Part shown: piece after piece, positions 5,636 through 55,637 of the stretch
How the letters are laid out: every line of letters begins with the position of its first letter
Numbering within the stretch: position 1 is the first letter of the stretch
Virus record (IMG/VR): IMGVR_UViG_3300026488_000011
Span: 1 to 64,000 of that record
Strand: one strand, 5' to 3'
Length of the DNA stretch: 64,000 nucleotides
Source of the DNA: a virus
Notes under the pieces: generated by a model
The model's database searches: none
What the model was told of the DNA's origin: nothing
Seen by the model: only the letters and a program-made list of their open reading frames with translations
Position numbers and translations under genes: made by a program

Positions 5636-5835
5636 TACTAATCCTTATTGATGATTTTCTATCATTAGATCCTTACACGTTACAGTAAGTATAATTTCCG
5701 TATAATGTTTTGCTGTTTAGAGTCTAATTCACAAAACTTTATTAGTAATAAATAATATTGAGTTCGTAAGAATAGTGTTAAGTGCATATCTATATCCTCT
5801 CTTCGATTCTACACGAGTATGTGATAGATGATGTA

Positions 5836-6100
5836 GAGGTGCGATCACTACACTAGATAGGAATTGGCAGGGTCCTATCGACCTCGTCACTATTGCCTAT
5901 CCACTAGATGGTCTCCTATACTCTGCCTCTCTGAGGTGGGGTATAGGAGATCGGGTAGGTAACTCAGACCGTTAGCTAGCGGAAATCGGGGGGAGTAGAG
6001 GGGGGAGGATGACCTGCTGGTGGAGGGTGGGGCGGCGAGGAGCGTAGCGGCTCTAAAAATAAAAACCTTTTTCCTATTAGCTAACTGAACGAAGTGAGGT
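5836..6100 (+). ncRNA. GC-rich structured non-coding element, copy 1 (candidate ncRNA or origin)
   Basis: 21-bp hairpin 5909-5953 with G-U pairs, G-tracts 5988-6035, and motifs GTGCGATCACT and TGAACGAAGTGAG shared with copy 2. Confidence 0.6.
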
Positions 6101-6153
6101 TACTCCGGAAATATAAAAAAGAAAAATAGAGAATAAAGAATGAGGTAGAGAAT

Positions 6154-6831: not shown

Positions 6832-8343
6832 TTATATAGGTTTTTTATAGTTTAAGACTCTAAAGTTTTTACCTTGGTCTTGGAAGTACTTTAGACGATT
6901 TTTATCGTACTTTCTATGTTGTTTTATATCAGGAGTCCATACATAGACAAAGAGTACATCTTTGTCTTTTAAATCCCTTAATCTACCTATGGTTTGCTTA
7001 TTAGCATTAGGAGAGTCTATAGCTACGGTTTGGATTACAGTAGTGAGATTAGGAATGTCTACTGCAGTACCTGAGCTGAGTATAGTGGACACTATAATGT
7101 CTGAATCCATTAGTACGTTGTAATCTTCTTCGGCGTTGTATTTTTCTATCTTTAGAGTCTTATCATCGATGGTGTTTCTTAGATGATCTCTGATAGTTTT
7201 ACACATGTTTACCGTACCTGCAAATATCAGACACTTATCTCCGGGAGATCTCCTTTTGAGATAGAATTCTTTAGTAAGGAGTTCTATCATTTTTAGATAG
7301 TTTTCTAACATATCAGAGTTTCTAAATAGGGAGTTTTCATACTCAGCCTGGCTATATCCAAATCCTTTATCATATCTCACTCTCTTTGGATTAGAGAGAT
7401 AATATTTTACAGATAGTACATTTATATACCTGTTTACGTTTTCTTCTCTGAGACGCTTCTCAGAGGGGAATATGAGTTCATACATTCTTCTAGTCCTACC
7501 GTCCCTGGCTTCTAGGGTAGCAGTGAGGCCTATAAACTTTCCTACGTTTATAAAGAGCATAGATCTTACTACGTTGTGAAACTCTTGATGAGATTCATCG
7601 TTTATCAATAATCCAAAATCCAGTGTCTCTGCCAAAAGATGAGGACCTACCGGATATGTAAAAGTTTCGTCTATGTTTAACCATTCCTTTATATAGTTAT
7701 TCATAGTGGAGAGTGAGAAGATATAACATTTTATACTATCTCTCTCTTCATCACTGTACGAGAGTAGTTTTCTAAGACTATCTCCTCCTTGGACTACATA
7801 AATTTCTTCTTTCTTAACATCGGTAAGAGTGGTGATGTCAGAAATCCACTTGTCTATATAAGTAGGCAATATCAAAATAGCAAATCTCTTTTTTAATCTA
7901 GTTGCTATTTCAGCAGCTATCACAGTCTTACCCCTACCTGGTTTTAAGTTAATTAGATTAATAGGATCATCACTGTTTATTACCTTTTCAATAATTTCTT
8001 TTTGATAATCCCTTAGCTCAAATTCATAGATTGTATTTATATCTATGTCCTTACCTTCGACAGGAGGTACTTCTTCAATGACTGGTTCTTCGCCTAGTCT
8101 GGTCCTTATTTCATAAAGGACTTCCCCGAATGCATTAATAGGATACCTCAAGACCTGATTTCTCCAATCTATTACGAAAAACTCTTTATCCTTTTCGATT
8201 TTTCTTTTCTTTGTTCTTCTGTCAAATTTACCATATTTGAAAGTAACTAAATCGTTATGTAGGAAAATCATTTTACTCAGCAGCTTATCAAACATTTCAC
8301 TAGCAACTGTTATAAATAGCTTATATTTTTTTACATTAATCAT
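6832..8343 (-). CDS. SF2 DExD/H helicase (phiKZ gp75-like)
   Basis: LRDYQ Q-motif, PGRGKT Walker A, DESH, TAT, SGTAVDIPNL, QTIGRLR; lies after nvRNAP beta'. Start moved to the SD-supported ATG at 8343. Confidence 0.9.
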   Translation of the reverse strand: MINVKKYKLFITVASEMFDKLLSKMIFLHNDLVTFKYGKFDRRTKKRKIEKDKEFFVIDWRNQVLRYPINAFGEVLYEIRTRLGEEPVIEEVPPVEGKDIDINTIYEFELRDYQKEIIEKVINSDDPINLINLKPGRGKTVIAAEIATRLKKRFAILILPTYIDKWISDITTLTDVKKEEIYVVQGGDSLRKLLSYSDEERDSIKCYIFSLSTMNNYIKEWLNIDETFTYPVGPHLLAETLDFGLLINDESHQEFHNVVRSMLFINVGKFIGLTATLEARDGRTRRMYELIFPSEKRLREENVNRYINVLSVKYYLSNPKRVRYDKGFGYSQAEYENSLFRNSDMLENYLKMIELLTKEFYLKRRSPGDKCLIFAGTVNMCKTIRDHLRNTIDDKTLKIEKYNAEEDYNVLMDSDIIVSTILSSGTAVDIPNLTTVIQTVAIDSPNANKQTIGRLRDLKDKDVLFVYVWTPDIKQHRKYDKNRLKYFQDQGKNFRVLNYKKPI

Positions 8344-8379
8344 TTTTATCTCCTTTTTTTGTAGAGTCATTACGTCATA

Positions 8380-42738: not shown

Positions 42739-43140
42739 TTATTCCTCCTTAAATCCATTTAAGATATAACAGATAGCTCTGGCTTGATTAATAGGCGTTA
42801 CACCAAACATATCTGTAATGGTTTTATCTTTTGCCTTTTCTTTTATTTCTTCTAGCAACTCTGGTTTCTCTTTAAAATACTCTACCCATAGTTCTACGTA
42901 TTCTTTAAATAACTCTTGTTCGGACTTATTATTTAGAGGGGGTTTGTCTTTAGCTTCTTTCCAGTGGCTAACTTTACCTCTATAACCTTTTATATCTAAC
43001 TGATAAATCTCTTCAATGGACCTACCGTGATATCTTGTTAGACGAGCATAAAGAGCTGAATATCGTTTATCCCCTTTACTACTGCATTCGTAATAGGGTT
43101 CTCCTCTCTTAACTCTCCTAGCCCATCTGTAAATTACTTT
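42739..43140 (-). CDS. Start-less ORF in the -1 frame of the DNA polymerase stop; conserved phage domain, possibly NADAR-like fold
   Basis: Manual translation: KVIYRWARRVKRGEPYYECSSKGDKRYSALYARLTRYHGRSIEEIYQLDIKGYRG...YVELWVEYFKEKPELLEEIKEKAKDKTITDMFGVTPINQARAICYILNGFKEE*; exactly fills the gap; no ATG, GTG or TTG near its 5' end. Confidence 0.7.
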   Translation of the reverse strand, partial: KVIYRWARRVKRGEPYYECSSKGDKRYSALYARLTRYHGRSIEEIYQLDIKGYRGKVSHWKEAKDKPPLNNKSEQELFKEYVELWVEYFKEKPELLEEIKEKAKDKTITDMFGVTPINQARAICYILNGFKEE

Positions 43141-45302
43141 TTTTCTTCTACTCCATTGTCAATTAGATCTATAACTTTTAATCCAGGTTTAATGTAATAC
43201 CCTAATGAGTTTAGGATCATGTATAAGACATTACAGTTATCTTTTACAACTTTGTCTATATCTATTACTGACATAATCTCTTCTGGGAATCCTTTGTTAT
43301 ATAGGTTTACTAATGGAAACTTAAATGTCTTTATTTCTGACTTGTTGTATTTTTTAAGGAACTCTTCAAATCTCTGCTTAAGCTCATTGTCTTTTATAGA
43401 GTCCAAGAAGTTTTTCATATCTGTTTTATTATTAATAGTCGTAGGAATTTTAAGAGCCATATATGTAGGCTCAGGAGCATGACCGTACTTAGGTGCAAAC
43501 ACTTCTTCCCATAGCAAGTATTGTAGATATGGTGTTTTAGAAATATCTGGTTCTTTATACGCATTAGCTTCTTTAATTTTCTCTAACTTCAATACTTCCG
43601 GAGAACCTTCTTGTATTTTAGTAATTATATGTTTCTCCATGTCTGCTACTTTCTTCACATATTTACGTAGTGATATTTTCTTGTTACTACCTACCTCACT
43701 CATAATCTCCATCATCATTTCGTCTGCTAACTTCCTTACTGGTCCATACGCAAATGATGCAATAAGATGTACTCCTTTCTTTTCTAAATCAGGTTCTTTA
43801 AACACGTTACCTTCCTGTATTCTCACGTTAGCGTAATAGTGTTTAGATACATCTGTATTTACAAATACATCCCAGAAAAACTCATTCTTCATTTCTAAGT
43901 TTTTAGCAGCGTCATAATCTAAGTTCATATTGGCTCCTAGGAGCTTAATATAGTGGTCGATTGCCTGCGTCGTAAATGTCATAATTGCTGCCGTAATGGA
44001 TACCGCGTCTTTATTAAATACCATCTGACCATCATTATACCACTCTACCCAGTTTTGATATGTAGCACAGGTAGAATCCGTATCTGATAGCACGATTACT
44101 TCTCTTAGCATATCTTTTATATATGCGATCGAAATTGGAAACACTTTAGTAACAAAAAATGTTTTTATCAAGTCTTCTTTTTCCTGGAACGACTGCATTA
44201 GTCTGTTAGCGGTAGAAGCTAATATCTCTACCGTGTCATCGTCTAACGCGTCTTCTCCATCTAAGACATATTTTCTTCCTCTCATTAAGTCAGATTCTAC
44301 ATGTAGTAGTAAGTTAGTAATCCAGCTAGGTATCGATTTTAGATAGTCTCTAGGATTATCTACTTTGATCGGTTTATACTTAATTATATCGTCTAACCAA
44401 CCCTTCATGAATTCAGGATTTAACTCCCGTAATTGGAATAGATCATTTACGTATGCAATAGCTGCTAATTCGAATCCCGATAGTGATTTCAGAAATTTAT
44501 ATATCTCTCTTTCCTTTTCTGTATGCTTCCAGTACGGTCTTGTATTTTTCTTAATTACATTTTCCATCACATAGTCAGGTGTAGGAATAGTAAGTCTATA
44601 CTTCCTTATTATTTCTTCTATCTTATCTACGTCTACTGAGGCTAATATAGCGGTAAGATGATTTAATGTTACTTCAGGGTTTCTATAGTGTCTATTACCG
44701 GATATCATTGATTCAGAGATGGCATTTCCTATACCAGCTACACATCTGGTAATTGAAGTAAGCGTATAATGTGCTGATGGATTATATAACACCGTACCGG
44801 CACTAGCATAAGCTCCTGATAGAGAGTTGTTTTTAATCTTCATGGATTTTTGCAATGTATTGTGGTAATTATGTTTTTCTATATCTCCATCCATTTTGTA
44901 TTTAAAAGCTAGTTTTTTATGTTTAGATCTTAAAGCAATGTTATCGCTAATAAATTCTGCATGTAGAGATTTTTTCTTTTTAGGATTAAAGTAAACTGTA
45001 AATGATGGTACTATTATATCTCCTTGTTGTTTAACATAGTTGATATAACCGATTAGTGTAGTGATTTGATTATTTAGAATCTTACCATCCAATGTTCTTT
45101 CTCTAAACTTAACTCTAGGGTTTTTTATTTTACCTTGTTCTTTAAACTCTTGCAATTTCTTTTTTACTAGTTTTTTAGATTCTGGAAATGGTATATCTTT
45201 TTTCTTAGTTATATAAATAGCTGCTTGTTCTATGTAATCACTTATTGGATCCATATGTGGTTTATAATCTTCAGGTCTTAGCTTAAATATATCTGACATC
45301 AT
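43134..45302 (-). CDS. Family-B DNA polymerase, catalytic part of the split enzyme (phiKZ gp82-like)
   Basis: Motif B SMKIKNNSLSGA, motif C SDTDST, KHYYA and LEKKGVHL. Confidence 0.9.
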   Translation of the reverse strand: MMSDIFKLRPEDYKPHMDPISDYIEQAAIYITKKKDIPFPESKKLVKKKLQEFKEQGKIKNPRVKFRERTLDGKILNNQITTLIGYINYVKQQGDIIVPSFTVYFNPKKKKSLHAEFISDNIALRSKHKKLAFKYKMDGDIEKHNYHNTLQKSMKIKNNSLSGAYASAGTVLYNPSAHYTLTSITRCVAGIGNAISESMISGNRHYRNPEVTLNHLTAILASVDVDKIEEIIRKYRLTIPTPDYVMENVIKKNTRPYWKHTEKEREIYKFLKSLSGFELAAIAYVNDLFQLRELNPEFMKGWLDDIIKYKPIKVDNPRDYLKSIPSWITNLLLHVESDLMRGRKYVLDGEDALDDDTVEILASTANRLMQSFQEKEDLIKTFFVTKVFPISIAYIKDMLREVIVLSDTDSTCATYQNWVEWYNDGQMVFNKDAVSITAAIMTFTTQAIDHYIKLLGANMNLDYDAAKNLEMKNEFFWDVFVNTDVSKHYYANVRIQEGNVFKEPDLEKKGVHLIASFAYGPVRKLADEMMMEIMSEVGSNKKISLRKYVKKVADMEKHIITKIQEGSPEVLKLEKIKEANAYKEPDISKTPYLQYLLWEEVFAPKYGHAPEPTYMALKIPTTINNKTDMKNFLDSIKDNELKQRFEEFLKKYNKSEIKTFKFPLVNLYNKGFPEEIMSVIDIDKVVKDNCNVLYMILNSLGYYIKPGLKVIDLIDNGVEEKK

Positions 45303-45439
45303 TTAGTCCTTTATAGGTTCTATGCATTCTATAAACCATTGGTGATATTTGATAACCAAACTTTTTTAATCGGATTAAAATCTGTTGATCTTTAAATAAG
45401 ATGTTAGGGAACATATCAAAATCTCTCTATAGATATAGA

Positions 45440-45682
45440 AGAGTGCGATCACTGTTCTTAGTAGGCCTGGACAACCTACGACCGTGTCATCTTAGCTATC
45501 GCTCTCGGTGATCCTGCCTCTCTGAGGTGGGGTCATCGAGGGTGGTAGTAGAGAAACCATTAGCTGGTGGGAATCACGGGGGAGCAGAGGGGGAGGTCTA
45601 TGTCCGGGTGGGGGCGGGTGTAGGGAAGGACAATACAATCCAATGTTTAACCGATTAGCAAAACTATTTGAACGAAGTGAGA
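45440..45682 (+). ncRNA. GC-rich structured non-coding element, copy 2 (candidate ncRNA or origin)
   Basis: 20-bp hairpin 45501-45543 with G-U pairs, G-tracts 45578-45625 and motifs shared with copy 1. Confidence 0.6.
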
Positions 45683-45790
45683 ATACTCTGTAAAGAGTAA
45701 ATAAGAAAAAGAAAAAATAAAGATAGAAATATTAGGAATAGAGAAGAAAGTACTAGAGCAGTGTAGATAAGGATAGATAGGAACTATATC

Positions 45791-54983: not shown

Positions 54984-55637
54984 CTAACATTCTTTAGGTC
55001 TAACGATAAACTCATACGTCTTTGTTAGGTCATCGAATACAATTTCTAGGATCTCTGTTTCCTCGTCATAGAGTGGAGGGAACTCATTGCCTGGTTTTGG
55101 TTTATAATTGCTTCTATCTAATTGAGTTGTTTGCGGTCGTGTTTGCTGTCTTGGTTGTGCAGGCTGTTGAGGCTGTTGATTTTGATATCCCATAGGTGGC
55201 GGCGCAGCAGTAGTTGCACCAGGTCCCATATTCTGGTAAGCAGGTTGCCCTATCGCCACCCCACCTGTACCAACATTAGGTCTCTGATATCCCATTGGTG
55301 CCGGTGCGATGGTAGGGCCCATAGGATTCATGGTTGGAGGCAAACCTCCTCCTTGAAACATTGGTCTAGGGCTTTGACCTGGATACATTGGTTGTTGGTA
55401 TCCTTGTTGTTGTGGATATTGAGGTGGATACATGGGTTGCTGATATCCTTGCTGGGGCATCGGTTGTCCCATAGGCGGCGGCTGCATTCCCATATTTACA
55501 GGCTGTCCCGCTGGCTGCTGATAACTTTGTTGTCTATATTGCTGATACGCTCCTGGTTTTGGACCAGGTTGTTGATTAGGGTATTGACCTGGTTGGCCAT
55601 AGCCAGGTTGTCCCCATTGATTTTGGTTGTTCCACAT
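54984..55637 (-). CDS. Q/P/G/Y-rich low-complexity protein with a small C-terminal domain
   Basis: QQGYQQPMYP repeats; AAAGGAG SD. Confidence 0.75.
   Translation of the reverse strand: MWNNQNQWGQPGYGQPGQYPNQQPGPKPGAYQQYRQQSYQQPAGQPVNMGMQPPPMGQPMPQQGYQQPMYPPQYPQQQGYQQPMYPGQSPRPMFQGGGLPPTMNPMGPTIAPAPMGYQRPNVGTGGVAIGQPAYQNMGPGATTAAPPPMGYQNQQPQQPAQPRQQTRPQTTQLDRSNYKPKPGNEFPPLYDEETEILEIVFDDLTKTYEFIVRPKEC

Follow-up and report, generated by a model that had tools for sequence, protein, structure and literature searches.

GC-rich islands in the AT-rich genomes of thermophiles were reportedly used by Klein, Misulovin and Eddy in 2002 as a detection principle for RNA genes. Primer RNAs such as ColE1 RNA II and that of mitochondrial CSB II bring together a promoter, a folded RNA, G-runs of the GGGGGAG...GGGGG type and AT-rich DNA that comes after them. 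The packaging RNA (pRNA) of phi29 is phage-specific and restricted to one clade, with a promoter of its own and a fold conserved by covariation. GOLLD, ROOL and HEARO are orphan structured RNAs of Rfam, enriched in phages and metagenomes, whose roles are unknown or were recently discovered. To our knowledge, few structured non-coding RNAs other than tRNAs and introns have been characterised in jumbo phages.

Here we describe two loci of the virus record IMGVR_UViG_3300026488_000011, the full contig of which comprises 185,491 bp with direct terminal repeats and a GC content of 33%; the window analysed is its first 64 kb (64,000 nucleotides). The phage is PhiKZ-like and encodes a vertex protein of the PhiKZ gp28 type, and the sequencing runs that contain the window DNA are hydrothermal-vent metagenomes, with no RNA run listed among them. 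Copy 1 (5839-6105) and copy 2 (45441-45689) are mutually homologous and are the two top GC islands genome-wide (63% and 62% vs 33%), as well as the only places in 185 kb at which a G4Hunter-type score reaches at least 1.5. Islands of 62-63% GC in a 33% GC, vent-derived genome resemble those attributed to Klein and colleagues, but theirs are archaeal tRNA, rRNA and small RNA genes, whereas ours are phage-encoded and belong to no known family. Each copy is a + strand island within a long block of minus-strand genes, and all flanking ORFs of at least 60 aa lie on the minus strand, in agreement with a sequence-only reading of the window that had described the elements as antisense to their neighbours. 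These minus-strand genes include a 'divergent family B' DNA polymerase (43134-45302) and a superfamily-2 helicase (6832-8370). Plus-strand folds of the two copies were more stable than those of shuffled sequences (z of -2.7 and -4.4), with worse values on the minus strand (-2.4 and -1.0). On comparative sequence evidence, the element family is a previously undescribed structured RNA of a small group of hydrothermal-vent PhiKZ-like jumbo phages.

The two copies can be divided into the same series of parts, all on the + strand. An upstream box (CATATCTATATC at 5786..5797 in copy 1, CATATCAAAATC at 45412..45423 in copy 2) precedes the 5' motif by 43 and 20 nt, respectively. The conserved 5' motif, GTGCGATCACT in both copies, is located at 5839..5849 and 45443..45453, and these element sites are its sole occurrences in its own genome. 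Hairpin P2 consists of GATAGGA/TCCTATC followed by CGACC in copy 1 (5856..5883, placed by the fold and by helix 1 of the eight-sequence alignment A9 described below) and of GTAGG/CCTAC followed by GACC in copy 2 (45461..45483, placed by the fold and A9). The rod hairpin P3 of copy 1 (5893..5962) has an unbroken apical helix of 20 bp, 5910-5929 with 5933-5952, including four G-U pairs and with a 7-nt bulge below, and that of copy 2 (45490..45554) is unbroken over 26 bp, 45495-45520 with 45524-45549, including eight G-U pairs. Hairpin P4 then reads CCG-TTAGCTAG-CGG plus AAATC in copy 1 (5968..5987, A9 helix 4) and CCA-TTAGCTGG-TGG plus GAATC in copy 2 (45556..45575, fold and A9). The G-tract domain of copy 1 (5988..6042) is made up of block 1 (5988-6008) and block 2 (6022-6042) and reaches a G4Hunter-type maximum of 2.20, while that of copy 2 (45578..45629; block 1 at 45578-45596, block 2 at 45607-45629) reaches 2.04 and contains a canonical run of four G3+ tracts. 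A 3' module kept between both copies, ATTAGC...TGAACGAAGTGAG..ACTC at 6076..6105 and ATTAGC...TGAACGAAGTGAG..TACTCT at 45654..45689, completes the series. Its AGTGA can pair with the TCACT of the 5' motif, and in copy 2 the partition function pairs the module with the 5' motif and its flank at a probability of at least 0.9. A closing helix P1 is nonetheless not claimed, because the partner of the 5' motif is inconsistent between members, being the 3' AGUGA module in some and the P3-P4 junction or G block 2 in others.

Every motif that the sequence-only reading had listed as shared by the two islands was found where it had been placed. The identical 20-mer, CTGCCTCTCTGAGGTGGGGT, occurs at 5923-5942 and 45514-45533 and nowhere else in the genome even with three mismatches allowed (0 matches expected by chance), and no other record of IMG/VR contains the exact 20-mer. 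The unbroken stems, given earlier as 21 and 20 bp, proved to be real rod hairpins, with lengths that we correct to 20 bp in copy 1 and 26 bp in copy 2. The outer halves of the rods are unlike between the copies while pairing is kept in both, which bears out the compensatory change proposed for them.

The family as retrieved consists of eight loci in seven contigs, six of them beyond the window (in G001, G002, c148/G005, L063, G012 and G009). Members were found through the loci of polymerase genes, by scanning for degenerate DNA patterns and with covariance models built in three successive versions (R1-R3). The eight sequences fall into two clades, clade 1 of the window type and clade 2 of the G002 type, plus one outlier, and their loci score at E values of 1e-24 to 1e-45 with R3 or its precursors. 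R3 matches exactly two sites in the window's own genome and one in each other member record. It gave no match in 47 further PhiKZ-like records (31-55% polymerase identity, two of them rated at least 90% complete), so the family is apparently confined to a small lineage of vent phages. R1 found no member among 34 relatives, a null result that we attribute to a first-look filter over-specific for the window-type clade. A strict three-motif pattern returned 51 loci in metagenome contigs, of which the model confirmed only four, three being records already known, and 34 loci in GTDB genomes, none of them true; a host-derived or prophage copy was thus not found by this strict-pattern search. The strict pattern misses divergent members (G012 and G009), since it requires the motif at the P3 apex. 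Weak R2 matches at L195 and L196 are coding-like and were rejected as false. Against the 4227 covariance models of Rfam 15 the window gave nothing at gathering thresholds, and at E values up to 10 returned only miRNA and snoRNA models, whose scores for the rod hairpin are well under threshold. A blastn search of 50,697 GenBank phage records produced no match to the element.

All eight members have in common the order of upstream box, 5' UGCGAUCACU, P2, CGACC, rod P3, P4 and G-tract blocks. The core of the upstream box, (C/G)ATATCWAWAT, is located 20-43 nt upstream in seven of the eight, and is looser in G009. In clade 2 the box takes an identical 17-nt form, which with zero mismatches has a single occurrence in each of G002, G005 and G012, in front of the element, while any other matches are at control level; its core occurs at chance frequency in the window's own genome. 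Because the clade-2 box is restricted to the elements, it is either a dedicated signal or part of the unit, and we rejected the possibility of a general phage promoter. Scans for a sigma-70-type promoter gave nothing consistent at the elements, nor was a consistent intrinsic terminator found there. Between the box and the 5' motif lies a variable spacer of 20-43 nt, and conservation begins abruptly at the 5' motif, which can be written (G/U)UGCGAUCACU and is followed by CUAG, hairpin P2 and (G)CGACC. The sequence TGCGATCACT is identical in seven members and is replaced by TGCGCTCACT in G009. P3 is a rod of 25-30 bp with an internal loop. The stem of P4 varies widely (CCG/CGG, CCA/TGG, CCATA/TATGG, CCTAG/CTAGG, CTAAG/CTTAG, CACAG/CTGTG, CCAG/CTGG) around loops of UUAGCU, CAACUA or CAGUUA, and is followed by GRAAYC or GAACAG. 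G-tract block 1 ends in a small GGG/CCC hairpin, and a variable segment precedes block 2, which contains GGGYGGG and in clade 2 reads GGGYGGGYGUGGGAGRAUGA, usually with a terminal hairpin after it. Several G3-G6 tracts are present in every member (G4Hunter-type maxima of 1.24-2.20), and a canonical four-tract run with loops of at most 12 nt is present in copy 2 and G001 only. The module TGAACG(A/T)AGTGA stands at the 3' end in the window copies; a related TGAACGTAGTGAATC has an internal position in G002 and c148, whereas L063, G012, G009 and G001 lack it.

Compensatory mutations strongly support the predicted fold, P2 to P4, on the G-rich strand. The more conservative estimate comes from A8, for which the four clade-2 sequences were aligned with plain MAFFT and given a hand-drawn structure, with no model fitting. 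In A8, 97.1% of the 140 cells pair and 25 of the 35 pairs change on both sides, a value reached by none of 500 shuffles, and controls in which the structure was slid pair at 32-46%. In A9, the alignment of all eight sequences, pairing extends to 95.3% of cells, with two-sided changes at 32 of the 35 pairs, counts that are inflated and somewhat favourable as this alignment was fitted to the model. The first helix of A9, P2, changes on both sides in five of six pairs with 98% of cells pairing, and helices 2 and 3, which make up P3, do so in 23 of 24 pairs. In G012 the P3 helix is kept though its apical sequence is unrelated to that of the others. Within the stems, 43 cells are G-U and four are A-C, such that 95% of cells pair when the G-rich strand is read and 81% when its complement is, which assigns the fold to the former. 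Across four DNA runs few SNPs were seen, and the sole variant within a stem, C>T at 5904, converts a C-G to a U-G pair. Alignment and covariance modelling, as the sequence-only reading had proposed, returned heavy covariation across homologs, and its claim of strand-specific G-U pairing is upheld, as is its broader suggestion of a candidate novel structured RNA, which now has six further homologs, covariation in three hairpins and no Rfam family.

Other non-coding or GC-rich regions of the same genome provide some perspective. A group I intron (RF00028, 79 bits, E 2e-19) is located in a GC-rich 843-nt gap at G000:99597-99972 (-) (L203:598-973), which supports reading the GC islands here as structured RNA. 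A GC-rich intergenic region at ~112.3 kb was considered as a third copy of the element and rejected, as R3 does not match it. It may be a separate candidate RNA (approximately G000:112255-112490 (+), L204:755-990) with no match in Rfam; it has short motifs in common with the element and contains CCCCTCTGAGGGAGAGGGG, GGAATC, TGAACGAAGTGAATGAGTGAG and a strong terminator-like hairpin, GGAGAGGGC-TAC-GCCCTCTCC, followed by TTATATAT. We also observed a 1.2-kb gap devoid of long ORFs at G000:89795-91010 (L202:1296-2511), with several long, perfect, AT-rich hairpins that the model matches as generic hairpins only. Within the window, a stretch in one of the minus-strand gene blocks, 55129-55575, is likewise GC-rich (up to 57% GC) and resembles Q/P-rich coding repeats.

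The genomic surroundings of the element are not constant. Neighbouring genes encode a polymerase, a helicase, MazG, a MYG1-like exonuclease, DUF7484 and unrelated small ORFs, none of which accompanies every member. Both copy 2 and the element of the 186-kb G001 are antisense to the DNA polymerase gene and sit directly upstream of it; copy 1 is 0.7 kb from the helicase gene. G001 carries an ortholog (63% identity) of the 154-aa gene beside copy 1, and between this ortholog and the helicase it has unlike genes and no element. The elements of the window and of G001 are antisense to their neighbours and those of clade 2 are co-directional, and copy number per genome is one or two. This variation in position, neighbours, orientation and copy number points to a free-standing RNA gene. 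A partner protein encoded next door was considered and rejected, as the small ORFs adjacent to the elements show no mutual relationship, and so was a small peptide beginning at GGAGG-AUG, the position and sequence of which are not conserved. Several neighbours merit separate mention. A 157-aa ORF without a Pfam match (L005:3124-3597, -) begins ~40 nt after the G001 element, on the element strand and opposite to every neighbour, and has no counterpart in the window. The MYG1-like exonuclease gene (PF03690) is directly downstream of the element in c148 (L018:1985-2842, -) and directly upstream in L063 (L063:12873-13805, -). The helicase ortholog of G002 (G002:C1:10457-13600, -, L072/L073) is a single open frame of 1052 aa whose two matching parts are ~500 aa apart, which could reflect an intein or another insertion.

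We hypothesize, with about even confidence, that each locus is a free-standing gene for a candidate structured non-coding RNA that acts in trans as a scaffold or decoy for protein binding. The RNA, of ~230-270 nt, would have the sequence of the G-rich (+) strand and run antisense to the minus-strand operons around it. Its 5' core would comprise the nearly invariant, single-stranded UGCGAUCACU, P2, the CGACC junction, the 25-30 bp rod P3 and P4 with its conserved loop, and its 3' tail would be rich in G-tracts and include the small GGG/CCC hairpin. A phage or host protein might recognise the conserved junction strands, loops and G-tracts, kept in position for it by the hairpins, and the high GC content could have evolved to keep the RNA stable in a warm vent host. 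The 5' motif, CGACC, P4 loop and G-tracts are best read as putative recognition surfaces; this reading, together with the finding of no link from the element to a known ribozyme, to a protein of mobile elements or to a downstream gene of the riboswitch type, leads us to favour a folded RNA acting in trans. The phi29 pRNA offers a partial parallel, in that the element is also limited to one clade, has a covarying fold with drifting sequence and a putative promoter of its own, though it shows no sequence or structure match in Rfam and is not near packaging genes. It is likewise an orphan-type structured RNA of phages and metagenomes, as are GOLLD, ROOL and HEARO, but none of these matches it, and it differs in being smaller, in having a G-tract tail and in not lying beside tRNA clusters or IscB. 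Conserved G-tracts would be unusual for a protein scaffold, and a role in an R-loop or G-quadruplex fits them at least as well.

The G-tracts are among the points in favour of a transcription-primed replication origin, whereby a dedicated promoter would drive the structured RNA, its G-tract tail would persist on the C-rich template as an R-loop or hybrid G-quadruplex, and a phage polymerase/RNase H complex would process and extend it, providing a primer in a group without a recognisable primase. The blocks are kept in eight of eight members while the sequence around them drifts, the two loci are the genome's only strong G-tract sites, AT-rich DNA comes after each element, and the polymerase and helicase genes are close by as described above. 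With its folded RNA, similar G-runs, following AT-rich DNA and putative promoter, in a phage group without a recognisable primase, the element resembles ColE1 RNA II and CSB II, but its location and orientation are not conserved, and the GC skew carries no origin signal. The idea gains interest because chimalliviruses have been reported to lack identifiable primases, and RNA-DNA hybrids have been speculated to start their replication (2026 preprint, PMC13648698). Several observations nevertheless make an origin unlikely in our view, and the replication-origin module that had been put forward for these loci finds no support in them. The cumulative GC skew declines steadily across the genome without inflecting at 5.9 or 45.5 kb; the window copies run head-on into long minus-strand operons whereas those of clade 2 are co-directional, so orientation is not conserved; there are one or two copies per genome, and the site of copy 1 is filled by unrelated genes in G001; and the element is absent from the 47 other PhiKZ-like records, near-complete ones included. 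Moreover, the conserved hairpin loops and junctions suggest selection on a folded RNA rather than a mere hybrid. A specific form of this proposal, in which the elements would be dedicated primer-RNA genes whose folded 5' domain recruits or positions the polymerase/RNase H complex while the G-tract tail locks an R-loop or hybrid G-quadruplex for cutting and extension, we consider about equally unlikely.

An improbable alternative is that the element acts in cis on transcription, as a processive antiterminator like put of HK022, as a G-quadruplex pause or stop, or as a leader controlling the genes downstream. It sits right after the conserved, element-specific upstream box, in clade 2 and G001 a same-strand ORF starts 40-200 nt downstream, and in c148 five or more genes in the direction of the element follow it in a row. 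Downstream of the window copies, however, no ORF is co-directional, and both copies run instead into convergent genes; the downstream genes of the family are mutually unrelated, such that no constant co-directional gene of the kind expected of a cis-regulatory leader or riboswitch was found among members, and an AT-rich spacer precedes the next gene. We give a similarly small chance to the element being a ribozyme or an RNA component of a mobile element, for which the invariant 5' edge would be a processing site and the copies would have spread between variable regions. The abrupt start of conservation after a variable spacer, the conserved junction strands around variable helices, which resemble catalytic or aptamer cores, the difference in gene content between the copy 1 region and G001, and the group I introns carried by the phage are all compatible with such an origin. 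Set against it, the self-cleaving ribozyme and intron models of Rfam give no match, no transposase, reverse transcriptase, recombinase or homing endonuclease gene lies beside any copy, terminal or target-site repeats were not seen, and each genome carries just one or two copies. [quoted passage not shown] Guide or partner RNAs (omega RNA of IscB/TnpB, bridge RNA of IS110, msr-msd of retrons) were set aside because the neighbours listed above include no nuclease, recombinase or reverse transcriptase gene of such a system, and resemblances to an SRP-like GGAA apex, a CRISPR repeat and the 16S 3' end (GAUCAC) are unsupported in conserved positions.

The element represents an orphan family with unusually clean comparative support, from an uncultured lineage of vent phages, and no sequence of the genome is as extremely G-rich as its conserved G-tract tail. 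If it forms a trans-acting particle, as we favour, it would point to an RNA-protein interaction new to infection by nucleus-forming phages. The two defined candidate loci also make the hypothesis of R-loop primers in chimallivirus replication directly testable and, were that hypothesis true, primer-RNA genes would explain how replication starts in a PhiKZ-like phage without a primase.
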